A stretch of 64,000 nucleotides of DNA, from assembly GCA_963827275.1 (NCBI GenBank), contig CAWHAA010000005.1:617924-681923 (forward strand), in the 5' to 3' direction. Each line of letters starts with the position of its first letter. The stretch's first letter is position 1. Positions 9,669 to 57,056 of this stretch are shown piece after piece. The notes under the pieces are model-generated. The model searched no databases. It was not told where the DNA came from and saw only the letters and a program-made list of their open reading frames with translations. The position numbers were made by a program, and so were the translations under genes. The stretch comes from an uncultured Spirochaetota bacterium (lineage in GTDB: Bacteria; Spirochaetota; UBA4802; UBA5550).

Positions 9669-10577
9669 CTACCGCCGCTCCAGCGCCCTGAAGACGCAAG
9701 CATATTCGCCCTTCGCGTTCCAGGCGACCCACCCGCGCGCGCCGGTCGATTCCGCCCCGTCGATCTGGAGCGCAACGTAGCGCTCGAGGCCCACGCGGGC
9801 CCACCCTATGTTGTAGCCGAAGGCCTGGATGAAGGGCTGGACCGTGGCGCGGGTCCCTTTCACCCTCTCGAGCCCTCTGGCCGTCCCGTCCCGAACGGTC
9901 TCGCCGGGATTGGCCAGCCGGTCCCTGTCTCCGGTGAAATGGCTCGGGTAGAGCATGGGATAGATGACATCGGCATGTTTCGCGAAGTTTTCTATCTTCT
10001 GGCCGATGATGTCGTCGCGGTTGTACACGACCCTGCCGAAAAGGTCCGCGGAGAGCACGACCCCGCGCGCGTCTGCGATCCCGCGCGCGCGTTTCAGGAG
10101 CCGGTCCACGAAATCGTACTTCGCTGAAAGGGCATAGAACGGGGCGCCGTCGGGGAAGCGGATATAATCGAGCTGGACCTCGTCGAACCCGGCGGCCGCG
10201 GCCTCCTCGATCGTCGCGAAGAGGCGGTCCATCTGCTCCTCCGGCACCGGTAGCGATTTCAGCCCGTCCTGGAAGCAGACGACCCGCGCGGCGAGGTAGA
10301 TCCCCTCGCGTTTCAGGTACCCGATCACGTCGCGGTTCATCCTCGTGCGGGCTGACATGAAGGGCTGGACGTCCATGACAAGCATGTTGATGCCAAGGGG
10401 CTTCCCATCTTTCACCACCGCCCTGGCATAGTCCGGGCTGCAGGCCTGGCGGTTCGGCACGTACAGGCCGCGGAGCAGTCCCCGTCCCCCGCGCGGCGAC
10501 ATCCCCGCGGTCGAGCACGAGAGGCAGCCCATGGCGGCCGGGACAAGCAGGAGTATGATGACGCGCAGCCGGAGCAT
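9669..10577 (-). CDS. Putative glycoside-hydrolase-like TIM-barrel lipoprotein (GHL/DUF4015-type)
   Basis: Signal/lipobox MLRLRVIILLLVPAAMGCLSCS. It carries a motif I associate with uncharacterised GHL-family hydrolases: FDEVQLDYIRFPDG. The ATG at 10575-10577 lies 1 nt from the MFS transporter stop codon, indicating translational coupling. Confidence 0.5.
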   Translation of the reverse strand: MLRLRVIILLLVPAAMGCLSCSTAGMSPRGGRGLLRGLYVPNRQACSPDYARAVVKDGKPLGINMLVMDVQPFMSARTRMNRDVIGYLKREGIYLAARVVCFQDGLKSLPVPEEQMDRLFATIEEAAAAGFDEVQLDYIRFPDGAPFYALSAKYDFVDRLLKRARGIADARGVVLSADLFGRVVYNRDDIIGQKIENFAKHADVIYPMLYPSHFTGDRDRLANPGETVRDGTARGLERVKGTRATVQPFIQAFGYNIGWARVGLERYVALQIDGAESTGARGWVAWNAKGEYACVFRALERR

Positions 10578-11998: not shown

Positions 11999-13666
11999 TT
12001 ATTCTTCCAGTATCAGCGCTTCATACGGTTCGATTTCAATCACGCTGCCCGGGTCCCCGCTCCTCCCGGCGGCGCTTGAGAGCACCACGCCCCCCGGCCG
12101 GAACCCATCAATGCGGAGCACCCTCTTTCTGCAGGAAAAATTCAGCGCCACGAGCAGGCACTCTCCGTCCCCTTCCCTGAAGAATGTCAGCACCTCCGGG
12201 TCCCCGCCGACAAACCGGAGGGAGCCGCGCTGGAGCGCCGGCCGCTTCTTTCGAAGCGCGATCAGCTCACGGTAGAAGCAGAGGAGGGAGCCCGGTTCGC
12301 CCATCTGCGCCGCGACATTCGCTTCCCGATAGTTATCGGTGACCGGGAGCCATGGATCAGAAAGGGAAAAGCCGGCATTGGGCCCCGCCGACCACTGCAT
12401 CGGCGTGCGCTCCGGGTCGCGCCCTCTATAGAAAGGCCAGTACTTCTTCCCGACCGGGTCCTGTATCCTGCGGCGTGGCACGCGCCCGTTCTTCATGCCG
12501 ATCTCCTCGCCGTAGTAGAGAAATGGCGTGCCGCGCGCCGTGAAGAGCAGGGCCGCAAGCACCTTCGCTTTTTTCACCCCGTACCTGTCGCGGCACCACC
12601 GGGTCATGCTGCGCGGCTGGTCGTGGTTATTGAGCACAAGGCTCGGCCATCCCCCGGCCGGGATCGCGGCGTACCAGCGCAGGAGACACTCGCGGAAGCG
12701 GGCCGCGCCGTACTTCGAAAAGAGGAGTGAAAAGTCAAACGCGAGGTGCAGCTCATCCGTGCCGCTGCCAAGGTACGACGCGGCTGTCTTCACGCCGCCC
12801 GGCGACGCTTCGTAGGTCTCTCCAACCATCATGCGATTATCATACTCGTCCAGAACCTTCCGCAGCTCCCGCAGCACGCCGTGGGTCTCCGGCCTGTTCT
12901 GGTCATACACGTGCTTCTGTAAATCGTAGGGCCGGGGTGCGTTGGGGCCCCAGCCGAACGGGTTGCTGCGGAACCGGTCGTCCTTGACGAGCCAGACGAC
13001 CGCGTCGAGGCGGAAGCCGTCAACGCCCCGGTCGAGCCAGTAGCGTATCTCGCCGAACACCGCGTCGCGGAGCGCCGGGGTGCGCCAGTTCAGGTCAGGC
13101 TGCTCCTTCAAGAATGAATGAAGATAATACTGCCGGGTCGTATCGTCCCATTCCCACGCCCTGCCGCCGAAGGCCGCCATCCAGTTGTTGGGCGGCCTCC
13201 CCCTTTTCCCGTCATGCCAGATGTACCAGTCCCGCCTGGGATTGTCCCGCGAAGCACGGGACTCGACAAACCAGGGGTGCAGGTGCGACGTGTGGTTGAT
13301 CACCAGGTCCATGACGATCTTTATCCCGCGCCGGTGCCCTTCGCGTATCAGGCGGTCAAAATCCTCATCGGTCCCGAACACCGGGTCGATGCCGCGGTAA
13401 TCGGAGATGTCGTATCCGAAGTCGAACATGGGAGAGGTGTTGATCGGCGAAAGCCAGATCGCGTCGATCCCGAGCCATGACAGGTAATCGAGCTTTTCAA
13501 TAATACCGGGGAGATCGCCCACACCGTCGCCGCTGGCGTCATAAAAGCTCCTCGGATAGATCTGGTAGATGGTGCCGTGCTTCCACCAGGTGAATTCGCC
13601 TGAATGCCGCATACTCTGACCCCCGGACATGTTTGGTGTACCATACGTTGAATCTCTTCCCTTCAT
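11999..13666 (-). CDS. GH13 alpha-glucosidase / oligo-1,6-glucosidase family enzyme
   Basis: 555 aa. N-terminal WWKHGTIYQIYPRSFYDASGDGVGDLPGIIEKLDYLSWLGIDAIWLSPI is the canonical GH13 oligo-1,6-glucosidase / trehalose-6-P hydrolase start. Catalytic regions GFRLDAV, EL..VGE and NHD are present. Confidence 0.85.
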   Translation of the reverse strand: MKGRDSTYGTPNMSGGQSMRHSGEFTWWKHGTIYQIYPRSFYDASGDGVGDLPGIIEKLDYLSWLGIDAIWLSPINTSPMFDFGYDISDYRGIDPVFGTDEDFDRLIREGHRRGIKIVMDLVINHTSHLHPWFVESRASRDNPRRDWYIWHDGKRGRPPNNWMAAFGGRAWEWDDTTRQYYLHSFLKEQPDLNWRTPALRDAVFGEIRYWLDRGVDGFRLDAVVWLVKDDRFRSNPFGWGPNAPRPYDLQKHVYDQNRPETHGVLRELRKVLDEYDNRMMVGETYEASPGGVKTAASYLGSGTDELHLAFDFSLLFSKYGAARFRECLLRWYAAIPAGGWPSLVLNNHDQPRSMTRWCRDRYGVKKAKVLAALLFTARGTPFLYYGEEIGMKNGRVPRRRIQDPVGKKYWPFYRGRDPERTPMQWSAGPNAGFSLSDPWLPVTDNYREANVAAQMGEPGSLLCFYRELIALRKKRPALQRGSLRFVGGDPEVLTFFREGDGECLLVALNFSCRKRVLRIDGFRPGGVVLSSAAGRSGDPGSVIEIEPYEALILEE

Positions 13667-13869
13667 CTATAACCATGCATCACATCGGCTCACCGGGTAT
13701 ATATTTCATGTGTGATAGCATGGAAAACGGGCAAATGCAATACTAATTTGCCTGAAAAATCATCAAAATCTCTTAAAAAAACCCTGTATATCCCGTGTAA
13801 AAAAATTATCACCCGCACGGAAAAGATTTACCAGAATTATACCCTAACCCTAAGGGGGTCAGAGTAACC

Positions 13870-14016
13870 ATGCCACCGATAACTATCGCCCCAACAGGGA
13901 TCAGAGCAGCCATTCCACCGATAACTATCGCCCCAACAGGGATCAGCGCAACCATGCCACCGATAACTATCGGCCCAACAGAGGCCAGAGCAGCCATGCC
14001 ACCGATAACTATCGGG
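13870..14016. repeat. 3.5 tandem copies of a 42-bp unit, each carrying the inverted repeat CCGATAACTATCG(G)
   Basis: Units at 13870-13911, 13912-13953 and 13954-13995, plus a partial unit 13996-14016: ATGCCACCGATAACTATCGCCCCAACAGGGATCAGAGCAGCC and its variants. Both strands keep open frames (+: MPPITIAPTGIRAA x3; -: GAIVIGGMAALIPV x3), which is typical of non-coding low-complexity repeats. GGGGGTCAGAGTAA sits immediately upstream at 13855-13867. Confidence 0.8.
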
Positions 14017-14118
14017 CTGAAGCATGATCACTGCCAGCAATGTCAGAAAATTTTTTATCATCCGCCTCCCCTGTTCGTATACACAATAGCACCAAACCAG
14101 AAGCCAGAGGCTATTCCA

Positions 14119-14673
14119 ATGAATGAAATTATACCGGCCGAGACGATTATGCAAAAAATTTATATTATCAGGGGCAAGAAGGTGATGATAGACAGGGACC
14201 TTGCCGGGTTGTATGATATTGAGACAAAGCGGCTCAAAGAGCAGGTTAAACGAAACATCAACAGGTTCCCGGAAGACTTCATGTTTGAACTGAGTTATAA
14301 TGAGTTTGAGCACTTGAGGTCGCATATTGCGACCTCAAGATGGGGCGGCACGCGATATGCTCCCATGGCCTTTACTGAACAGGGGGTCGCCATGCTTTCG
14401 AGCGTTTTGAATAGTCCGCGCGCCATTCAGGTTAACATTCAGATTATCAGGGCTTTCGTGCATCTCCGCCGGATGATCTCCTCCAGCGACGATCTACGAA
14501 AGAAAATCGAAGAAATGGAAAAGAGATACGACAAACAGTTCAAGATTGTTTTTGATGCGCTGCGGGAATTGCTCAGGGATGAACCAAATCCAAAAAAAGA
14601 AGATCGGGTTTTAGCGAGCGGCTACAGCGCATGCTTGCGTGCGAAGGCGATCCTCTTTTTTATCGAGGGGTGA
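14119..14673 (+). CDS. ORF6N-domain protein (KilA-N-related, phage antirepressor-like DNA-binding domain)
   Basis: IYIIRGKKVMIDRDLAGLYDIETKRLKEQVKRNINRFPEDFMFELSYNEFEHLRSHIATSRWGGTRYAPMAFTEQGVAMLSSVLNSPRAIQVNIQIIRAFVHLRRM matches the ORF6N-domain consensus. The ORF track extends the frame back to 13870 through the tandem repeat. An internal ATG at 14119 (MNEIIP...) or 14149 is the more plausible start. Confidence 0.75.
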   Translation: MNEIIPAETIMQKIYIIRGKKVMIDRDLAGLYDIETKRLKEQVKRNINRFPEDFMFELSYNEFEHLRSHIATSRWGGTRYAPMAFTEQGVAMLSSVLNSPRAIQVNIQIIRAFVHLRRMISSSDDLRKKIEEMEKRYDKQFKIVFDALRELLRDEPNPKKEDRVLASGYSACLRAKAILFFIEG

Positions 14674-22299: not shown

Positions 22300-22463
22300 T
22301 GTCGCTCAAGCTCCATGGACGGCATGGCGGGAATAACGGCGAATGAGGGCATTCACCCGGGCGCGACCGCGCCGATAACCGCAGGCCTGTCAAACGTTGT
22401 GAATTTCCGGATATTGAAAAATCAGGGTGAAAAATGTCAATAAAAATTACCGCACAACCGGGT

Positions 22464-36755: not shown

Positions 36756-36800
36756 TCCTTAATTTTTTTATATACACTGCTTAATATTTAACTGCAACAG

Positions 36801-37043
36801 GAAGAGCCCTTTCATTCCAATGCGTTACTTGAATAAATATTAAACAAGTGTTTAACGACATAATATAAAATGTCAATTTTTTTATGCCCCCTATATGCCG
36901 CGCGGAATCTTTTGTTTTATACAAAAATACATGACCAAATTATAGATTTGTCATGTATGATAAAAATATAGATGCCCAGGATAATTTTAAAATAGAAAAA
37001 TCCGGTGACGATATAAAAAACCGCCGGCTGGGGGCCGGCGGCG
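36801..37043. repeat. Conserved non-coding cassette R1 (about 243 bp), about 95% identical to 38831-39073
   Basis: It begins GAAGAGCC...GATGCGTTACTTGAATAAA...ATGTCAATTTTTTTATGCCCCCTATATGCCGCGCGGAATC. It contains the palindrome ACATGACCAAATTATAGATTTGTCATGT (36928-36955). It ends with the hairpin CCGCCGGCtgggGGCCGGCGG preceded by AAAAAA. On the minus strand that hairpin is a terminator with a T6 tail, for the gene at 37069-38802. Confidence 0.8.
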
Positions 37044-37068
37044 TTATGTTTACAGCATGAGATCCGGA

Positions 37069-38802
37069 TTACTCCAATCCCAATCGTATTGAAGGCAATA
37101 TATCCACGACCCAGCCCGGATTATTCAAAGACTGGTTTTCAGTGCCCAGCAAACGCCCCGGATAGCGGGTCGTGTTGCTCTCACCCTGCACGAAATTCTC
37201 TATCGCGGACGCGCCCGCGTCATGGCGAACATAGATCGCGAGGTTCTTCCCCGATGTATACCTGAACTCGGTATCAAGCGGTATGTTGACCCAATCCCCG
37301 GCCTTGAGTCCCGCAGGCACGGACACCGTGCCGGTAAAGACGGTTTTTTCATCATTCATGTTGTCCAGATATGAAGGACCGAGCGCAAGAGTATCGAGGT
37401 CGGAATGCCCGATGACAATGCTGATGTTTCCATAAGTCTCGGCAACCGAGTCGTTTTGGAGTCGGAACCCGATGCTGTTGATGCTGCCGTAAAGCCCAAG
37501 CTCAACTGCGCGGTACAGAGGCTGGAACTGACCGGTCACGGTCCCATGGAAGGGCGGATAGAGGTTGTGGTTCCCCGACCCTATCACGTCCGCCGTGCCA
37601 CCCTTGAAGCGGAACGTGATATTATTGAGGGCACTACTCAGATCACTTGGTGTATTGACCGAGCCCACAAGCCATGAATTCGCTCCTGCGGAACCATTCT
37701 TTACAAAAATATTTCCGTTTGGTGAAGTCACATATATTTCCACAACCAGGTTGTCAATTCCATTGTAATTAAATGCCCCGTCAAGCGGAAGCCACATATA
37801 TGCCCCATCCGGAATGCCTGCCGGCACCCTGAACTTCCTGTTTGTGGCCACGGTTACCGGTGAACCTGAATTGAAATTAGCATTCCATGACTCGGTCACC
37901 AGTTCAGTACGTGTGGTATGGCCGAGGCGTATCGTTACCGTGCATTCCCGTTCCACCGAATCAGTATGCGTGGCGAAACCGATGCCAATGATACCGCCCG
38001 AGCCATTGATCGTGCCCGCCGGATACAAAAGTTGCAATTTTTGGTAGGCAGCATCATTGATGAACGGAGGATTATTCCCGGTTGTTCCATAGTGCAGTCT
38101 GTTGTCCCCGCCGGCGAAGTTGAATTTTACATCAGGATAGGTATACGCTGTAATACCTGTCGTCGCAGTGCTTGCGCCTGATCCGGTACCATATACCGTG
38201 AAATAATTTACTCCATCTTCTGTATGTGTCGTTAGTACTACGCCGCCTGCTGTAGGTAATACCGGATTGCGGGAAACTTCAACGACCAGATTATCCACTC
38301 CGTTGTAATAGAACGGCTGGGTCAATTGAATAGTAAAATAATCGCACACTGTGCAATTCGGGATGGTTACGCTCTGGTTATCGAGCACTGTCGTGTAGGT
38401 TCCCTTGCCCTGTTGAACATTGCTGGCATAGGTACTGCTGAGCGTGGTCACACTCGTATGCCCCATTTTTATAGTCACCCCGTTGAAGGTCCTATCAGCT
38501 CCAGGAGAAGCATTGTATTTAAAGGAAATTGAAGTTATCATGCCGGCCCCCTTGATGTCGCCAGCCGGAAACATCATCATATACCGGCTTTCATCATGAG
38601 TGCCCCACATGCTTGATGCCGAGGATGCTCCCCCACCACCGATGACTTCTTTAACAAATACCCCCTGCACGGCAGGCGCACTGCCTCCGCCAAGCCCCAG
38701 GAGGGCCATAATGCCGCTATTGTCGCTCTTCACCTTGCTGCAGCCGGCCAGCATACATACCGAAAGAATTCCGATGAACATTACGCCGAGAAACTTTTTC
38801 AT
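37069..38802 (-). CDS. Large surface lipoprotein with three internal about 150-aa repeat domains (paralog A)
   Basis: 577 aa. Lipobox MKKFLGVMFIGILSVCMLAGCSK. Three internal repeats share the ...FxYNGxDNLVVE... pattern. Ribosome-binding site AAGGAGAG. No recognised domain. Confidence 0.6.
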   Translation of the reverse strand: MKKFLGVMFIGILSVCMLAGCSKVKSDNSGIMALLGLGGGSAPAVQGVFVKEVIGGGGASSASSMWGTHDESRYMMMFPAGDIKGAGMITSISFKYNASPGADRTFNGVTIKMGHTSVTTLSSTYASNVQQGKGTYTTVLDNQSVTIPNCTVCDYFTIQLTQPFYYNGVDNLVVEVSRNPVLPTAGGVVLTTHTEDGVNYFTVYGTGSGASTATTGITAYTYPDVKFNFAGGDNRLHYGTTGNNPPFINDAAYQKLQLLYPAGTINGSGGIIGIGFATHTDSVERECTVTIRLGHTTRTELVTESWNANFNSGSPVTVATNRKFRVPAGIPDGAYMWLPLDGAFNYNGIDNLVVEIYVTSPNGNIFVKNGSAGANSWLVGSVNTPSDLSSALNNITFRFKGGTADVIGSGNHNLYPPFHGTVTGQFQPLYRAVELGLYGSINSIGFRLQNDSVAETYGNISIVIGHSDLDTLALGPSYLDNMNDEKTVFTGTVSVPAGLKAGDWVNIPLDTEFRYTSGKNLAIYVRHDAGASAIENFVQGESNTTRYPGRLLGTENQSLNNPGWVVDILPSIRLGLE

Positions 38803-38830
38803 ATACTCTCCTTTATATTAACTGTTATGG

Positions 38831-39073
38831 GAAGAGCCTCAAAATTTTGATGCGTTACTTGAATAAAATCTTAAACAAGTGTTTAACGACATAATATAAA
38901 ATGTCAATTTTTTTATGCCCCCTATATGCCGCGCGGAATCTTTTGTTTTATACAAAAATACATGACCAAATTATAGATTTGTCATGTATGATAAAAACAT
39001 AGATGCCCAGGATAATTTTAAAATAGAAAAATCCTGTGACAAAATAAAAAACCACCGGCGGGGGGCCGGCGGC
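38831..39073. repeat. Conserved non-coding cassette R2, near-identical copy of R1
   Basis: Same sequence as R1 with about 10 substitutions. Its terminator hairpin CCACCGGCgggggGCCGGCGG lies 26 bp after the stop of the gene at 39101-40849. The same palindrome is at about 38948-38975. Confidence 0.8.
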
Positions 39074-39100
39074 TGTTAACGAAACAATAAACAAGATGGG

Positions 39101-40849
39101 TTATCTTGAAATTTTAAACTTCATATTAAACTTATAATCCTGCGGTGTTCCCACGGTAGCATTCCCCGGAACGCCAGCCGCCATTTGACCCGGATATCTC
39201 GTTGCATTCGATGATGATACTATGCAACTATGGCTTGGGATAGCCGGAAATGTGGTCGCCGTGGTACCCAGCCAGACAGCAAGATTACTAGTACCATTAT
39301 AGATAAACGGTTGTGTCAGCGGGATTTCGATCCAGTCACCCTGTACAAGACCGGCAGGCATTGAAAAGAAACCGTTAAGCGCAATCAACTGGTCATTAAA
39401 GTTACCAGCAGCAGGGTCCGCCACCAGAGGATCCGCGCTGCTGTGTCCAATAATAACCCGATAATTGTTATAGGTTGTCGCAGTTGATGATGGACTGTTC
39501 AAGCGGCAGGCAATAGAAGTAATGGTGCCGGCCGAGCCCAGCTCCGTGGCACGGTACAGGGTTAACCTGCCTTCTGCATTTGTGGAAAATGGCATGCTGG
39601 TTGACGAACCACTGGCAGTTATAACGTCCATGGTGCCGCCGGCGAAGCGGAGTACCGGTTCAAATGCGCGCTGTCGAATGGTACCGGTAGGACTTAATGG
39701 ATTTGTTGAAGATACAACACGATATGGTATAATATTATTGTATTGAAGCAAGTAACTACCCGAATCGACAATACATGTTATATCTATCAACAGATTACTT
39801 GTTCCGTCATAAAAAAAACGACTTTTATTAAAAGGTATCCAGACAGTTGACGGTTGTTCAGCAGGCACAGTGTATGCGATATCCTGTGCTACGATAACCG
39901 GGGCATTATCGCCATAATTATCAGTAAATGTGGTAACAAGACCCGTTGTGGAAACAGGAACATGAGCAACACTTACAGTCATATTTGAAACAACAGTTAA
40001 AGCAGTAACACTGTACGGATGCAAAGCCAAGCCCGTAATCAATCCGCTGCCATTAATATCAGATGCCAAGATAAGCATCTGAGTACGTCCAGTTGTACCA
40101 GGTGCCAATGTAAGGCCATTTGGTCCAGTTTTATCAGAACAAATCACATTATTTGTCCCGCCCGCGAACTTGAACTTCACATGATGCGGGCTCTGGCTGG
40201 TTTGTGTCGCCGTATCAGGCGTGGCGCTGCTTGTGCTGTACACCCTGCCGGTATACGGGACCGCCCCGGCGCCGGTTGTGAGCCGGACCCCGCCGGTGCA
40301 GGCCGACGTCCGGGTGATATCGACCACGAGATTGTCCACCCCGTTGTAATTGAACCGGGTATCGAGCGGTATTTCAAAATATTCCCCCGCGGCGCCCGCG
40401 GGGATGCTCACCGCCCTGTCCAGGACCGTCACGGCAGAGCCCTTGCCCTGGTTGACGTTCGAGGTCATATCCGTATTGAGCGCGGGAACAGAAGAATGCC
40501 CGAGCCTGATGGTGACGCGCGGACAGGAGAGCGCCTGGCTGTTTTCATAGTACCGGAAGTAGATGGACGCGATATTGCCGGACCCGGCGATGTCCGCAGG
40601 CAGGTACAGGAACTGGTAGTGGCGGAACTCCTCCCCGTTGAACGGGCCCAGGATGGAGCTGGTCGGGTTGCTCAGCGCGACCGTCTTGATAAAATTCGGC
40701 CCGCCGGAGAGGCCGAGCAGGGCCAGCATGGAATTGTCTTCTTTTTCCCTGTTGCAGACGGTCAGTGCGAGCAACGAAACAATCAATGTGAATAATGCCA
40801 TATATAGCTTTTTCATGACCTTCCCCCATGTTGATGCGCATATGCCCAC
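39101..40849 (-). CDS. Large surface lipoprotein (paralog B of 37069-38802)
   Basis: 582 aa. Lipobox MKKLYMALFTLIVSLLALTVCNR. Shares the MLALLGLSGG, NVNQGKG..TVLD and FNYNGVDNLVVD repeat-domain blocks with paralog A at roughly 35-40% identity. Ribosome-binding site GGGGGAAGG. Confidence 0.6.
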   Translation of the reverse strand: MGICASTWGKVMKKLYMALFTLIVSLLALTVCNREKEDNSMLALLGLSGGPNFIKTVALSNPTSSILGPFNGEEFRHYQFLYLPADIAGSGNIASIYFRYYENSQALSCPRVTIRLGHSSVPALNTDMTSNVNQGKGSAVTVLDRAVSIPAGAAGEYFEIPLDTRFNYNGVDNLVVDITRTSACTGGVRLTTGAGAVPYTGRVYSTSSATPDTATQTSQSPHHVKFKFAGGTNNVICSDKTGPNGLTLAPGTTGRTQMLILASDINGSGLITGLALHPYSVTALTVVSNMTVSVAHVPVSTTGLVTTFTDNYGDNAPVIVAQDIAYTVPAEQPSTVWIPFNKSRFFYDGTSNLLIDITCIVDSGSYLLQYNNIIPYRVVSSTNPLSPTGTIRQRAFEPVLRFAGGTMDVITASGSSTSMPFSTNAEGRLTLYRATELGSAGTITSIACRLNSPSSTATTYNNYRVIIGHSSADPLVADPAAGNFNDQLIALNGFFSMPAGLVQGDWIEIPLTQPFIYNGTSNLAVWLGTTATTFPAIPSHSCIVSSSNATRYPGQMAAGVPGNATVGTPQDYKFNMKFKISR

Positions 40850-40952: not shown

Positions 40953-41075
40953 TTTACTCTGACCCCCCGGTTTCCTGCGTTGCTTACTCTGACCCCAGTG
41001 CTTTTCCTGCGAGCCGGCGATAGTTATCGGTAGATTCCGAACTCTGACACCGTATTATTGTTTACTCTGACCCCC
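40953..41075. repeat. Cluster of short dispersed repeats: 3-4 copies of TTACTCTGACCCC plus one CGATAGTTATCGG
   Basis: TTTACTCTGACCCCCC 40953-40968; TTACTCTGACCCC 40984-40996; CGATAGTTATCGG 41018-41030; degenerate AACTCTGACACC 41039-41050; TTTACTCTGACCCCC 41061-41075. Two copies are followed by TTT(T)CCTGCG. The cluster is in the divergent intergenic region between lipoprotein B and the FadL-like outer-membrane protein gene. Confidence 0.6.
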
Positions 41076-41300
41076 TTGTTTTCATAATAATTTATTTTTT
41101 ATATACATAAAATGATAAAAAATAATATTTTACTGGACTCTTCCATAGAAAATCGCTATTATTAGTGGTTTGGGTAGAATGGGTTGCATTATTAGAAGGT
41201 AACAATATAAAAGAACAAACGCTCTAATGATGCGAGCTATGTTCCTGTGCAATCGGGCCCTTATTGTGCGGTACAAGTCGCATCATAGCAATGTGTTGTA

Positions 41301-43110: not shown

Positions 43111-45114
43111 ATGAAGCAAAGGATATTTTACATGATCATGATAAGCCTGCTCGGCCTGAACGGGTGCACAAACTATCTCGAGGGCAACCGGGATACCCAG
43201 CTGCTCTACGCGGCCTTTTTCAGCACGGCGCCGGTGCTGAACCCGCTTGTGATCGCCGGCACATCGAACAATTTCATTACCCTGGCCCGGCCGACATTTG
43301 TCGTTGCCGGAAGTCCCGCGCCGTCGGTCGAAGCGTACATCGGGCTGGACGACGGGAGCATGACTATTTCGGGAACGACGGTGACCGGCGCCATAGAGGG
43401 CCCGGTCGACGTTTCAGCCGCTCCGTACCAGTTTAACACCGGCCTGTCGCCAGACACCATTTATCGCATCTATGTCGTGGCGATAAACCCCAATGGCTAT
43501 TCCGTCAGGACCATCACACAGAGTACTTCGCATATCGTGCCGGTGCTGGATCCCCTGGTGATGAGCATTCCGCCAACATCCGATACAATAACCCTGGACC
43601 AGCCGACTTTCTCGACTGCGGGCAACCCCCTGCCCACGGTTGAGGCGTATATCGGCTATGCCGGGGGAGCAACGCCCATATCCATAACACCGGCGGCCAC
43701 CGGCTATACCGTTGCCAACGATCTCCAGGGCCCGGTGGACGTTTCCGCCGGCGGATGTCAGTTCACCGGCCTCGCGAACAATACCCTCTACCGGGTTTAC
43801 GTGGTGGCGCAGAACATGGATGTGAGCGGTACATACCACCAGTCGATCGAGTTTATCGACGAGAGCACTTATGGGATAGCGCCGGTCATGGACGCGCTGG
43901 TGACAACGACGATTCCGCCGACAACAGACACGATAACACTGGACCAGCCGACGTTCTCGACTGCGGGGAACCCCCTGCCAGCGGTGAGCGCGTATATCGG
44001 CGTGGACGGCTTCATTTCAGTCGCGGGAACCGCGGTAAGCGGCGCCACCCAGGGACCGATCGACGTGTCATCAGCTGACTACACCTTCACCGGCCTTGCA
44101 AATGACACGACCTACCGGATCATCGTGGTGGCGCAGAACGTTATCGGTTCCTCGGTACAGCAGGCGACGCAGAGCACGACGGGCATCGCGCCGGCGATGA
44201 ACGCGCTGGTCACGACCACCATCCCGCCCACAACAGACACGATAACACTGGACCAGCCGACATTTGCCACTGGGGGCAACCCGGTCCCGACGGTGCGGGC
44301 CTATATCGGCATTGATGGATTCATAACGGTCGCAGGGACCACGGTAAGCGGCGCAGACCAGGGGCCTGTCAATGTGGCAGCGGCAGGCTGTACCTTCACC
44401 GGCCTGGCCAACGACACGACCTACCGGATCATCGTGGTGGCTGAAAACAGCGTCGGCTCATCGGTGCAGCAGGCGACGCAGAGCACCGGGGGCATAGCGC
44501 CGGTAATGGAAGCACTGGTCATAACAACGGTTTCACCCACGATTGACACAATTACCCTGGACCAGCCGACGTTTACCACCGGAGGAAACCCGGCGCCTAC
44601 TGTCAAAGCCTACATCGGTATTGATGGCTTTATTTCAGTCGCGGGGACCGTGGTGACCGGCGCAGACCAGGGACCGATCAACGCGGCATCTGGAGGTTAC
44701 ACCTTTACCGGCCTGGACAATGACACGACCTACCGGATCATTGTGGTGGCCGAAAATACCTTCGGCTCTTCGGTACAGCAGACGACGCAGAGCACGGTGG
44801 GTATCGCTCCGGTGATGGACACGCTGGTCACGACCACTATCCCACCGACCACAGACACGATCACACTGGACCTGCCGACGTTTACCACCGGGGGCAACCC
44901 GGCGCCGACGGTCAAAGCATACATCGGTATTGACGGCTTTATTTCAGTCGTGGGGACAGTGGTGACCGGCGCAGACGAGGGGCCGATCAATGTAGCGTCA
45001 GCCGGATACGCGTTCACGGGACTGACAAACGGCACCACCTACCGGATCATCGTGGTGGCCGAGAACAGCGCGGGTTCTTCAGTACAGCAGGCAACAGAGA
45101 CCACGCTGCCGTGA
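43111..45114 (+). CDS. Repetitive surface lipoprotein with about six tandem FN3-like repeats
   Basis: Start at ATG 43111 (ribosome-binding site GGGAGGT; lipobox MKQRIFYMIMISLLGLNGCTN). The ORF track's start at 43009 overlaps the upstream gene. About 100-aa units (IAPVMDALVTTTIPPTTDTITLDQPTFSTAGNPLPAVSAYIGVDGFISVAGTAVSGATQGPIDVSSADYTFTGLANDTTYRIIVVAQNVIGSSVQQATQST) repeat about 6 times at high DNA identity. Confidence 0.65.
   Translation: MKQRIFYMIMISLLGLNGCTNYLEGNRDTQLLYAAFFSTAPVLNPLVIAGTSNNFITLARPTFVVAGSPAPSVEAYIGLDDGSMTISGTTVTGAIEGPVDVSAAPYQFNTGLSPDTIYRIYVVAINPNGYSVRTITQSTSHIVPVLDPLVMSIPPTSDTITLDQPTFSTAGNPLPTVEAYIGYAGGATPISITPAATGYTVANDLQGPVDVSAGGCQFTGLANNTLYRVYVVAQNMDVSGTYHQSIEFIDESTYGIAPVMDALVTTTIPPTTDTITLDQPTFSTAGNPLPAVSAYIGVDGFISVAGTAVSGATQGPIDVSSADYTFTGLANDTTYRIIVVAQNVIGSSVQQATQSTTGIAPAMNALVTTTIPPTTDTITLDQPTFATGGNPVPTVRAYIGIDGFITVAGTTVSGADQGPVNVAAAGCTFTGLANDTTYRIIVVAENSVGSSVQQATQSTGGIAPVMEALVITTVSPTIDTITLDQPTFTTGGNPAPTVKAYIGIDGFISVAGTVVTGADQGPINAASGGYTFTGLDNDTTYRIIVVAENTFGSSVQQTTQSTVGIAPVMDTLVTTTIPPTTDTITLDLPTFTTGGNPAPTVKAYIGIDGFISVVGTVVTGADEGPINVASAGYAFTGLTNGTTYRIIVVAENSAGSSVQQATETTLP
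43250..45110 (+). repeat. Intragenic tandem repeat (about 300-bp unit x about 6) encoding the FN3-like modules
   Basis: Near-identical DNA blocks are visible. For example GACACGATAACACTGGACCAGCCGAC recurs at about 43926, 44236, 44536 and 44850. Confidence 0.7.
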
Positions 45115-47286: not shown

Positions 47287-47300
47287 CCGATAGTTATCGG
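47287..47300. repeat. Perfect copy of the inverted-repeat motif CCGATAGTTATCGG between convergent genes
   Basis: CCGATA gt TATCGG lies 11 bp after the stop at 47276 and 12 bp before the dapL stop (47312). Just upstream there is also a GGCGCGTTTTAACGCC palindrome. Confidence 0.7.
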
Positions 47301-48616: not shown

Positions 48617-49087
48617 TCAAGCAATTTTTTCAATTACAAGGTCAGCCGGGATTCGGGAATAGTTTCTCCGGGTGGGGGGGAGGCCCCAGTGGAGTTTCCA
48701 GCAGATTATTCCATCAACAATCTCCCTGACAACAAGATAATTTCTGTATGTATAGTTATCGGTATTATTTTTCTTATTCATATACTTTAAGAATTTTTTT
48801 AATGCATATGCAAGGATCAACGAAACAGACATCTTGAACAACTTCCTTAAATCCAAAAAATACTCGTAATCATCTTCCCTTAAACTTAAATGAAATGCAT
48901 GCCACTCCCCCGGGGGCATCCTCTTTTGATATTGCACCATCTTCCCAAGCCGTGCAGGATCAGGAATATCATCCATAACTTTTTTTATCAGGTGAGTTAT
49001 CAATTCCGATCTTGTGATTCCATGTGCATGCGCAACTGAGGTTATCTGCTCCAGCGCCGTAATACTGATATTAAGGGTTGTATCCAT
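48617..49087 (-). CDS. Hypothetical protein in a low-GC (about 40%) segment
   Basis: 156-aa ORF with base composition atypical for the genome and no recognisable domain. It contains a variant of the inverted-repeat motif (TATAGTTATCGG, 48751-48762) inside the ORF. Its status as a coding gene is uncertain. Confidence 0.4.
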   Translation of the reverse strand: MDTTLNISITALEQITSVAHAHGITRSELITHLIKKVMDDIPDPARLGKMVQYQKRMPPGEWHAFHLSLREDDYEYFLDLRKLFKMSVSLILAYALKKFLKYMNKKNNTDNYTYRNYLVVREIVDGIICWKLHWGLPPTRRNYSRIPADLVIEKIA

Positions 49088-49187
49088 TATTGTATCCCTG
49101 AGTTTATTTATAAGGGATACGAAAAATATAATTGTATTGTTAAAATTTTTTTATGGACTATATATTTTTTTGCAATAAATTATATAG

Positions 49188-49200
49188 CGATAGTTATCGG
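49188..49200. repeat. Copy of the inverted-repeat motif CGATAGTTATCGG in the divergent promoter region
   Basis: AGCGATAGTTATCGGTG lies between the low-GC hypothetical gene (start 49087, minus) and the radical-SAM gene (start 49249, plus). Confidence 0.7.
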
Positions 49201-49248
49201 TGAAATGCACACTCTTTTCCCCTTGACGTATCCCGCCACCTGGTTAAC

Positions 49249-56771: not shown

Positions 56772-57056
56772 AGTTGGATCCCTCGATGAAATTCCTTTTC
56801 GATGATAAATTTTATCCTTTTTTAATCAATTATTATTTTACCGTATCTGGACTTTTTGATTTTTATGTTCAGATTTTTTTTAGTGCTCCAATACGGCCTG
56901 AAATTCAATGGATACCCCGATTTTTTAAAGCACTATATAATGTCCGGAAAAAAAATAAGGGTGTCAGAGTAAATTATTGCTGTTAATCATTGACATTTTT
57001 CCATGCCGCCGTACCTTGATTTTGTAACCCGTACAACGTTCCAGGGTCTTTAGTTA

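Follow-up and report, generated by a model that had tools for sequence, protein, structure and literature searches.

The 64-kb window analysed here (the whole stretch of DNA, 64,000 nucleotides) contains a tandem array of four 42-bp units at 13855..14015, on the minus strand as shown by Tandem Repeats Finder, a repeat search and the unit listing. The array lies in the spacer shared by a divergent glucosidase operon, whose alpha-glucosidase gene starts at an ATG at 13612-13610 of the minus strand, and an ORF6N-domain gene at 14119..14673 of the plus strand (184 aa from its true start). It sits directly upstream of the -35-like element of the ORF6N gene and ends ∼104 bp before the true ATG. Tandem Repeats Finder gives a period of 42 with 3.8 copies, 88% matches and zero indels at 13855-14014, and the repeat search of the array region retrieves 83-nt copies spaced 42 bp at 87-88% identity, so that the 42-bp array put forward in the original prediction is real. 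In each unit, box B (TTrCTCTGACCCC) follows palindrome A (cCGATAGTTATCGGT) at a constant distance of 10 nt, and the whole unit reads on the minus strand as (C/G)CGATAGTTATCGGT-N10-CTCTGAYCCC-N8. The four A cores are all exact, with GATAGTTATCGGT of unit 4 at 13875..13887 and the remaining three at 13917-13929, 13959-13971 and 14001-14013 (all minus strand). The B box of the last unit is perfect, and this exact copy of TTACTCTGACCCC at 13855..13867 (minus strand) closes the array. Folded as single-stranded DNA, the array does no better than its shuffles (z = -1.1); neither a T-run nor a terminator-like site is found at the array, which speaks against a terminator role, and Rfam returns no match at gathering score in the whole window.

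In a 267-aa open reading frame, residues 95-179 match the Pfam ORF6N domain (E=5e-35). Since ORF6N homologues are only 164-190 aa long, and the 100% identical protein P0001 has 184 aa, the gene start is placed at 14119, and the residues added by the 13870 start form a spurious N-terminal extension, as had been proposed. Look-ups of the exact proteins, ORF6N and M48 with either start as well as P0001, retrieved no record. From its conservation, we infer a promoter-like element of ORF6N at 14055..14083 of the plus strand (TTATCA-N17-TATACA, with GTTCG abutting the -10), which scores below the threshold of the consensus promoter scan. ORF6N paralogues of other genomes have a common upstream element of the same kind (TTATCA-N17/18-TATAYR), unlike A/B. 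Syntenic orthologues are present in L001, a ∼85% relative of identical gene order, and in L002/L003 (95% relative), and neither flanking direct repeats nor a tRNA were found, which places the gene outside any recent mobile module, in line with the chromosomal setting favoured beforehand. Pfam annotation of the syntenic L001 locus yields sugar, POR and lipid genes, and no transposase or integrase domain occurs among the genes around the syntenic locus or the Pfam-scanned ORFs of the window.

Four of the six frames run through the repeat without a stop, and artefactual ORFs are therefore found on both strands. They comprise the 267-aa "ORF6N" and the 62- and 162-aa minus-strand ORFs, the latter being mirror artefacts of the repeat as anticipated; the 107-aa "PIVIG" ORF of L033 is a further case. 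The open frames could also mean that the repeat is translated, either as an N-terminal PPITIAP repeat of ORF6N or as a small minus-strand protein in one of two frames, the first with a signal-like MIKNFLTLLAVIML followed by (DSYRWHGCxxxCWx)x4 and the second with a glycine-zipper-like PIVIGGMAAL. The period of 42 bp (14 codons), a GGAGG a few nucleotides ahead of a minus-strand ATG at 14061 and a weak Defensin-like Pfam match (E=0.003, below the curated cut-off) are consistent with translation. Nevertheless, this reading is close to refuted already. In L003, the units are 43 bp apart and stops interrupt all six frames; the minus-strand "MIKNF..." ORF stops there after 32 aa, its substitutions relative to the window being non-conservative and located at first and second codon positions. 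Periods of 22, 41, 43 and 44 bp are found in related arrays, two relatives (L001 and L048) are devoid of the repeat, ORF6N homologues have no extension, and no match was obtained above the curated cut-off in Pfam or at all in NCBIfam. The L003 comparison also ruled out a small secreted Cys-repeat peptide or RiPP precursor encoded by the minus-strand ORF. The repeat is non-coding, as the original prediction had it.

The alignment of relatives delimits a block of ∼249 bp (13812..14060, no strand assigned), which consists of the array and its unique flanks and is bounded by a direct repeat TTATCA at 13806-13811 and 14055-14060. The entire block is absent from L001 and likewise from L048, a second sample of the L001 lineage, and both retain ORF6N with its promoter-like region. 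The L002/L003 relative has two units, 43 bp apart, versus four in the window. The array is dispensable for the ORF6N and glucosidase genes in relatives. A single MITE-like insertion that carried the array in and duplicated a 6-bp target (TTATCA) would explain a block that is present or absent with a clean junction between close relatives, its TTATCA direct repeats and the 10-11-nt AT-rich inverted match at its edges, and dispersed composite repeats of ∼230 bp bearing A/B clusters do occur in JAFGJX01. We consider such an insertion unlikely, however: that weak inverted match is the sole one and falls short of convincing terminal inverted repeats, neither the non-A/B flanks nor the full block recur in any sequence compared, and the same junction would result if the L001 lineage had lost the segment between the TTATCA microhomologies. 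A scan of metagenome contigs with locus-specific 23-mers gave no match.

Both modules recur in the window beyond the array. A genome-wide frequency of the 14-mer no higher than chance had been set beforehand as the refuting test for the motif; with up to 2 mismatches, CCGATAACTATCGG has 12 strand-matches at 8 distinct sites in the window versus 0.39 expected, and none of 100 shuffles reached 12. Motif searches confirmed the announced dispersed copies, placed at 41017, 47287 and 49187, and the variant TATAGTTATCGGT at 48751, but not the "half-site" at 22368, which has only CCGATAAC in common and fails every mismatch-limited search. The 14-mer is a real palindromic site of a type suited to protein binding. 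The B motif TTACTCTGACCCC, which had been overlooked, has 7 matches in the window versus 0.94 expected, with sites beyond the array end at 13611, 40954, 40984, 41062 and 56960. A second A/B cluster of order B-B-A-B'-B occupies a divergent intergenic spacer at 40954..41076 (plus strand) and is orthologous to the B-A-B-A-B-B cluster of L007. A solitary A copy at 47287..47300 lies in the spacer of two convergent genes, the variant A copy is at 48751..48763, and a copy that matches array unit 3 over 21 nt is located at 49187..49207, ∼50 bp upstream of a radical-SAM gene (all plus strand); a solitary B copy with 1 mismatch is found in a divergent spacer at 56960..56972 (minus strand). An exact A copy, also overlooked, lies within the alpha-glucosidase coding sequence at 12326..12340 (plus strand), where it encodes T-D-N-Y-R, and is present in L001 as well.

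Motif search and alignment also place an inverted B copy (ATACTCTGACCCCC) at 13611..13624 of the plus strand, where it overlaps the alpha-glucosidase start codon together with the SD-like GGGGG. This copy shows 13 nt of perfect complementarity (13855-13867 versus 13611-13623) to the B box at the array end, and the array might thus belong to the 5' leader of a glucosidase-MFS operon in which B boxes pair with the start-codon copy and sequester the ribosome-binding site. The A-to-B direction of the array is that of the glucosidase gene, transcription of such a leader could begin from a minus-strand sigma-70-like site (14155-14128), and the predicted centroid structure of this hypothetical transcript pairs the array region with the start-codon region in a helix. 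However, its fold z-score is only -1.9, and the array is absent from L001 and L048. The start-codon B copy is kept in L003 and also in the array-less L001, whereas the L048 contig stops short of it. As the orientation of family members to their flanking genes is mixed, with copies between convergent genes, we hold this leader function to be quite improbable.

The A+B pair was retrieved at >40 unrelated loci, nearly all from Spirochaetota MAGs or metagenomes. The composite A-N10-CTCTGA is found at 19 loci in the genome contig collection, for a chance expectation of ∼4 across the whole collection by our own arithmetic. Seventeen of these loci are titled Spirochaetota, Spirochaetes or Leptospirales, 8 of them from one MAG; of the two others, one is a 1.5-kb contig binned as Smithella and one a Bacteroidota match inside an ORF without a B box. 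The metagenomes contribute 24 further loci from a scan that was conditioned on a 41-44-bp spacing. Only two k-mer families recur across loci, and in the same locus a second A-B pair that was not selected by the search repeats the 22-23-nt offset. The consensus, built from 130 A and 109 B instances, defines A as a 7-2-7 palindrome of 16 bp (aCCGATA-GT-TATCGGT) and B as the asymmetric TTrCTCTGACCCC. Motif instances are strongly concentrated outside ORFs, with 88 of 113 (∼78%) in ∼15% of the DNA. They occur in divergent, tandem and convergent spacers without consistent orientation, next to genes that are mutually unrelated; even the largest arrays have no common neighbour gene, their surroundings including sensor kinases, TetR, a cupin, an SDR and a ParA-like gene. 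Clusters contain 1 to 9 units of ∼42-43 bp, and in three orthologous pairs (window/L007, L006/L008 and L016/L030) A and B are kept, spacers have diverged and units have been gained or lost.

Viral contigs returned no match in two motif scans, blastn of the block against plasmid and phage records found none, and Rfam gave only a chance U4 match at the related clusters L009, L017 and L018. A search of the literature for the motif strings retrieved only unrelated 11-mer matches in mammalian and zebrafish papers. Going by the literature, Rfam, phage and plasmid collections searched, the A/B repeats make up a bipartite intergenic family of uncultured Spirochaetota that had not been described before. 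A promoter of an alternative sigma factor, with A as -35 and B as -10, was considered and rejected because orientation is mixed and copies lie between convergent genes. To our knowledge, and on informal comparison, none of the sigma-54, sigma-28, DnaA-box, Fur-box, lambda-operator, attC and dif sequences fits the A/B pair in spacing or sequence.

The position of the array had led to the view of an operator or iteron array through which ORF6N, bound as dimers to the four phased palindromes, would regulate its own promoter. The array does abut TTATCA, the -35-like part of the ORF6N promoter-like element, the A palindrome suits a dimer, and an A/B cluster is also found 100-300 bp upstream of the ORF6N loci L012 and L049. 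In total, a cluster is present upstream of ORF6N at 3 of the 8 loci examined (window/L003, L012 and L049), so a loose link to ORF6N may exist. Once the locus that prompted the question is left out, though, this becomes 2 of 7 versus a background of ∼10%, which is not significant (∼0.15 by our own binomial). Moreover, the orthologues of L001 and L048 have the promoter region without the array, copy number is 2 versus 4, the paralogous loci L004a, L004b, L050 and L051 have no cluster, and more than 40 clusters adjoin unrelated genes, tblastn detecting ORF6N in 1 of the ∼43 motif-selected loci. Autoregulation by this array now seems very improbable, and the same orthologues, which keep the gene and not the array, speak against the idea of a regulator gene domesticated together with its operators. 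Compared with phage or plasmid regulator operators (e.g. of the Ant/KilA-N type), the resemblance is limited to palindromic sites directly upstream of a putative DNA-binding-protein gene, whereas A/B sites are absent from orthologues, present at unrelated loci and without any viral or phage match. The A/B result reduces, rather than increases, the evidence on the binding targets of ORF6N proteins.

The idea of helical phasing, which had been attributed to the array beside ORF6N, persists in a more general sense, for the repeat family and not for that gene. The A-to-A spacings are 21 (8 cases), 22 (6), 41 (5), 42 (18) and 43 bp (12), with minor groups at 63-65 and 81-88 bp, and arrays consisting of A alone also exist (7 x 22 bp and 9 x 21 bp), one of which follows a ParA/MinD-like gene at a distance of 160 bp. 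The 42-43-bp preference could, however, reflect an inherited unit length instead of selected phasing, and the metagenome scan had itself been conditioned on 41-44 bp. Such tandem repeats of 42-43 or 21-22 bp, each with a palindromic site, bring centromere- or iteron-like sites to mind (cf. sopC, parS), at which a ParB-like or other partition or organiser protein would bind. SopB of the F plasmid binds a 16-bp inverted repeat that is present in every one of the 12 direct 43-bp repeats making up sopC (PMC3177203). The A/B units share with sopC their length, one 16-bp palindrome per unit and a direct tandem order, and sopC might offer the best mechanistic analogy for cooperative binding on the same helix face. 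Unlike sopC, a single plasmid locus beside sopAB, A/B clusters are numerous, chromosomal, usually of 1-4 units and unlinked to par: many loci exist per genome, no par or rep gene lies within ∼10 kb of the array in the window or appears in the Pfam annotation of the syntenic L001 locus, the L038 array has no adjoining ParB gene, and plasmid records gave no match. A centromere-like function has accordingly become highly improbable in our eyes, notwithstanding the ParA/MinD-like neighbour.

The closest resemblance is to the REP/BIME elements of enterobacteria and pseudomonads (REPINs with their RAYT transposases). Both consist of short motifs (∼35-40 bp) in many dispersed copies, which are strongly intergenic, occur in both orientations, often lie just 3' of stop codons or between convergent genes, form mosaic clusters with a second motif, and are rapidly gained or lost among relatives while the motif remains constant. 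For the A/B family, dispersal amounts to 5 clusters in 64 kb, 88 of 113 instances outside ORFs and several loci per MAG. REPs are imperfect palindromes of 20-40 nt that form a stable hairpin with a GTAG head, this tetranucleotide being typical of them, and their genomes have a cognate RAYT (Y1 transposase) gene with REPs on its flanks; no RAYT was recognised among the genes around the syntenic locus or the Pfam-scanned ORFs of the window. By contrast, A is only a 7-2-7, 16-bp palindrome of weak hairpin potential (z = -1.1) and a GTAG head is not evident in its consensus, so we do not assign the family to the classical REP/RAYT elements. It also differs from REPs by an asymmetric second module B at a fixed 10-nt distance, and by common direct tandem arrays where REPs mainly form inverted doublets. 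The pneumococcal BOX element (boxA-boxB(n)-boxC) is another modular intergenic repeat, with a central module of ∼45 bp whose tandem number varies among strains. The A/B family is likewise modular, intergenic and variable in unit number; BOX, however, has conserved terminal modules A and C, whereas the flanks of the A/B block are unique and only A and B recur.

The bipartite repeat family exists, is non-coding and strongly intergenic, and is not tied to ORF6N; the presence of the block and its copy number vary. We consider it likely that the array arose by local tandem amplification (2 to 4 units) of this lineage-wide intergenic repeat, which behaves in a REP/BIME-like manner. Its units, single or in clusters of 2-9, are scattered over the intergenic DNA of an uncultured Spirochaetota clade and undergo fast gain and loss; arrays would grow by slippage or unequal recombination of whole units. 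The family is probably recognised by a dimeric DNA-binding protein, for which A would be the recognition site and which would be encoded elsewhere. Box B may be contacted by the A-bound complex or by a partner, and protein recognition would hold A and B constant while spacers drift. The 21/42-bp spacing would place bound dimers on a single face of the helix.

A bolder proposal, possible although we hold it with considerable doubt, is that A/B units are phased landing sites of a lineage-specific protein or protein pair, forming same-face arrays (spacing of 2 or 4 helical turns) at intergenic positions numbering in the hundreds, any copy number per genome being an extrapolation from 5 clusters in 64 kb. 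Candidate readers are a domesticated transposase, a ParB/Noc-like protein or an HTH factor; in a narrower version, ORF6N-family proteins would themselves be the A/B-binding factor. If phased landing sites are involved, the family would represent a new chromosome-organising or global regulatory system and not selfish junk. Motif conservation across species, the fixed A-B distance and the 21/42-bp preference make the repeat a tractable target for finding its reader protein. Besides, false ORFs on both strands are to be expected in annotations wherever the A/B family occurs, and the variable unit number (0, 2 or 4) could serve as a strain marker.

The array upstream of the ORF6N gene exists as the original prediction described it: Tandem Repeats Finder returned a period of 42 over 13855-14014 (3.8 copies, 88% matches, zero indels), and a repeat search of the window recovered in-register 83-nt copies in 42-bp steps. 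The 14-mer CCGATAACTATCGG (motif A) is commoner than chance, as had been anticipated, with 12 strand-matches at 8 sites versus 0.39 expected in the window (up to two mismatches) and none of the shuffles reaching 12. Its dispersed copies at about 41018, 47287 and 49188 and the variant at 48751 were all found, and the proposed half-site at 22368 turned out to be just an 8-mer. Two features had been overlooked. One is motif B, TTACTCTGACCCC, with 7 matches versus 0.94 expected in the window; a copy closes the array at 13855-13867 and others lie at 13611, 40954, 40984, 41062 and 56960. On the minus strand, each array unit reads A as (C/G)CGATAGTTATCGGT, then 10 nt, then B as CTCTGACCCC, and this A-N10-B spacing is repeated in the 41-kb copy. 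The other is an exact A copy inside the alpha-glucosidase CDS (12326-12340), which encodes T-D-N-Y-R, shares a 17-nt identity with the array unit at 14002 and is also present in L001, a relative's contig without the array.

The repeat is non-coding and the ORFs drawn across it are artefacts. Of the six frames, four run through it without a stop, and ORF callers therefore draw one ORF of 267 aa on the plus strand and two on the minus strand. The 267-aa ORF reaches its Pfam ORF6N domain (E=5e-35) at residue 95; since the best 120 ORF6N homologues are mostly 160-200 aa long, align solely with its C-terminal ~60-70% and include a 100%-identical protein of 184 aa (P0001), the gene start can be set at ATG 14119. 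The fake N-terminal extension suspected at the outset is thus borne out by the short homologues, by the domain position and by L003, a 95%-identical relative's contig in which stops are met in all frames. The two units of L003 lie 43 bp apart and break the frames, so that the minus-strand ORF is likewise an artefact of the repeat, as claimed. Arrays of the same motifs elsewhere have periods of 22, 41, 43 and 44 bp, and neither a Pfam hit above the curated cut-off nor an NCBIfam hit speaks for translation of the repeat. Two candidate peptides were rejected. The minus-strand Cys-repeat peptide (GGAGG, ATG at 14061, signal-like MIKNFLTLLAVIML, then four DSYRWHGCxxxCWx repeats) would stop after 32 aa in L003, with differences from the window at codon positions 1 and 2; a glycine-zipper-like frame through the repeat also hits stops in L003.

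Judged by gene order, ORF6N is a resident syntenic gene: the ENA contig L001, whose ORF6N is 85% identical, shares with the window the succession MFS, alpha-amylase, ORF6N, M48 peptidase and POR. The L001 spacer aligns well on both sides and the entire block at window ~13812-14060 is absent, with the junction at a TTATCA that is duplicated in the window, one at each block end. The block is likewise absent from L048, a second sample of the L001 lineage, and is present with two units in L002 and L003 (95%); the array thus varies between relatives as an indel and in copy number (0, 2 or 4 units). With or without it, conservation extends over ORF6N, its upstream 60 bp and the start region of the glucosidase gene. 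The idea that ORF6N marks the edge of a mobile module is not supported for a recent module: the gene is syntenic in relatives and neither flanking direct repeats nor a tRNA were found around it, although G+C is low, at 43-51% for gene plus spacer (window 13550-14600; 43-48% for ORF6N) versus 60-65% in the flanks. This low G+C suggests an old horizontal acquisition, now syntenic in relatives. The array-less L001 (~9925-9966) and L048 carry their own 42-bp insertion elsewhere in the glucosidase/ORF6N spacer (alignment columns 86-127), and the spacer is an indel hotspot. At the other end of the gene, the overlap with the M48 peptidase is not a conserved feature. In L003, L001 and L048, ORF6N ends in NPKKKIGF at 164 aa; in the window (14590-14673), an A-run carries a one-base difference, and the resulting change of frame lengthens the protein by a 20-aa tail whose codons extend for 52 bp antisense to the 3' end of the M48 peptidase gene, so the overlap stems either from a frameshift or from an assembly error in the homopolymer.

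An inverted B copy at 13611-13624 forms the SD-like GGGGG of the alpha-glucosidase gene, extends into its ATG start codon and is conserved in L001 and L003, i.e. in relatives without and with the array. It has 13 nt of perfect same-strand complementarity to the B that closes the array. Should the operon leader begin upstream of the array, these two B boxes could pair at the glucosidase start (fold of the putative leader, z = -1.9); we regard this as very improbable.

The presence of ORF6N beside the array had led to the proposal that the array is its operator. By tblastn, ORF6N genes occur in one of the ~43 motif-selected loci (L012). Conversely, a cluster lies within 300 bp in three of eight independent ORF6N upstream regions (window/L003, L012, L049) and is lacking in five (L001/L048, L004a, L004b, L050, L051); with the prompting locus omitted, 2/7 is not significant (our own binomial, ~0.15, assuming that ~10% of spacers carry a cluster). 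What ORF6N paralogues of several genomes do have in common is another, conserved element ahead of the gene, TTATCA-N17/18-TATAYR, with GTTCG abutting the -10 (window 14055-14083; L001, L003, the 8699 gene of L004, both genes of L012, and L050); it is intact in array-less relatives. This promoter-like element is a likelier control region of ORF6N than the array is. Taken together, these observations do not support the ORF6N-operator model, and the motif family is independent of ORF6N, although some ORF6N-family protein may recognise A in trans.

Taken whole, the block is unique among all sequence compared, and so are its non-repeat flanks; the two short motifs alone recur, as a dispersed family. 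Scanning one genome per species in a 596-Gb collection for GATAGTTATCGGT-N10-CTCTGA yielded 19 loci, where chance would give ~4 by our own arithmetic. Of these, 17 belong to MAGs whose titles read Spirochaetota, Spirochaetes or Leptospirales (one MAG supplies eight); the remaining two are a Bacteroidota match inside an ORF, without B box, and a 1.5-kb contig from a Smithella bin. A metagenome scan that required a pair of A cores at 41-44-bp spacing added 24 loci. A and B are the sole k-mer families recurring across loci, with consensus cCGATAGTTATCGGT(r) for A (130 instances) and tT(a/g)CTCTGACCCC for B (109 instances); the 22-23-nt A-to-B offset reappears in extra, unselected pairs, and B is also found inverted after A. 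L007 ('Spirochaetes bacterium Zod_Metabat.30') is syntenic with window 40.3-44.5 kb at 80% identity over 3 kb and window 34.7-35.9 kb has a 77% match in L015 (uncultured Spirochaetota bacterium); on these alignments, the window organism belongs to the Spirochaetota group carrying the family. The family is biased to intergenic DNA, with 88 of 113 motif instances outside long ORFs, i.e. in ~15% of the 245 kb searched, and several 'coding' instances are artefactual ORFs through arrays. Clusters occupy divergent, co-directional and convergent spacers. In co-directional ones their orientation is roughly 6 sense, 4 antisense and 1 mixed, and this mixture relative to flanking genes argues against a promoter or RNA-level element. 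Neighbours of the largest arrays are mutually unrelated (sensor proteins, TetR, cupin, SDR, a thioredoxin-reductase-like gene, a ParA-like ATPase). Neither the motif pair nor A arrays occur in IMG/VR viral contigs, phage and plasmid records contain nothing that matches the block, Rfam gave no family match, and a literature search for the motif string returned nothing relevant.

Three orthologous spacer pairs from different species (window 40.9 kb/L007, L006/L008, L016/L030) hold clusters at the same position, with A and B nearly identical, diverged surroundings, and units inserted, lost or flipped. Inter-motif spacers vary between adjacent units in most arrays, which are therefore old; the window units are 88-95% identical, spacers included, and the array is thus a recent tandem amplification. 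A-to-A spacings peak at 21 (8), 22 (6), 41 (5), 42 (18) and 43 bp (12), with minor groups at 63-65 and 81-88; in loci not chosen by spacing, 8 of 14 are 42-45 bp. The same-face phasing initially proposed agrees with these peaks at two or four helical turns, but an inherited unit length would fit equally, so the spacing is suggestive only. The array is probably a REP/BIME-like, lineage-specific intergenic repeat whose boxes are held constant by trans-acting recognition. A unit (A, 10 nt, B, ~8 nt) would spread and amplify via slippage or unequal recombination, while recognition by a trans-acting protein would keep A and B constant. The palindromic A does resemble a protein site, as first suggested; a dimer may sit on it, with B, one helical turn away, contacted by that complex or by a partner protein. 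The comparisons establish the family itself and show that it is non-coding, biased to intergenic DNA, subject to turnover and independent of ORF6N; that a protein recognises it, and what the phasing means, we infer. The array differs from classical REP/RAYT elements by its weak hairpin (array fold z = -1.1) and missing GTAG head, from MITEs by wanting terminal inverted repeats and full-length copies, and from sopC-type centromeres in par-gene linkage and copy number. sopC, with 12 x 43 bp and a 16-bp SopB site in each (PMC3177203), is nonetheless the closest analogy for the working of a phased array. Dispersed intergenic repeats are a known type of feature, of which this family is a new case; its value lies mainly in the annotation hazard it exposes and in the handle it offers on a putative DNA-binding activity in an uncultured clade.

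Other repeats were seen along the way. In MAG JAFGJX01, a ~100-nt core (L009 3797-3904, L017 544-649, L018 2880-3005; 92-94% identical) is strongly self-complementary (GGCCCCTGCAAA...TTTGCAGGGGCC, -47.7 kcal/mol) and bordered at every copy by A/B clusters; Rfam gave no match to it, and a structured RNA and a composite mobile element are both conceivable. A-only arrays exist in L038 (419-565, 7 x 22 bp), where the array follows a ParA/MinD-like ATPase gene at a distance of 160 bp and has no ParB gene in its vicinity, and in L033 (8762-8945, 9 x 21 bp), where the array yields a false 107-aa 'PIVIG' ORF. Within the window, a 288-bp direct repeat (36761-37046 and 38792-39078, 90.6% identity) accompanies two adjacent minus-strand ORFs of ~580 aa without Pfam hits (37069-38802, 39101-40849), one copy following the first ORF and the other lying between the two. 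Finally, a 309-bp tandem repeat at 43879-45092 (3.9 copies, 78%) lies within a 701-aa ORF of fibronectin type III repeats, which has an orthologue in L007.
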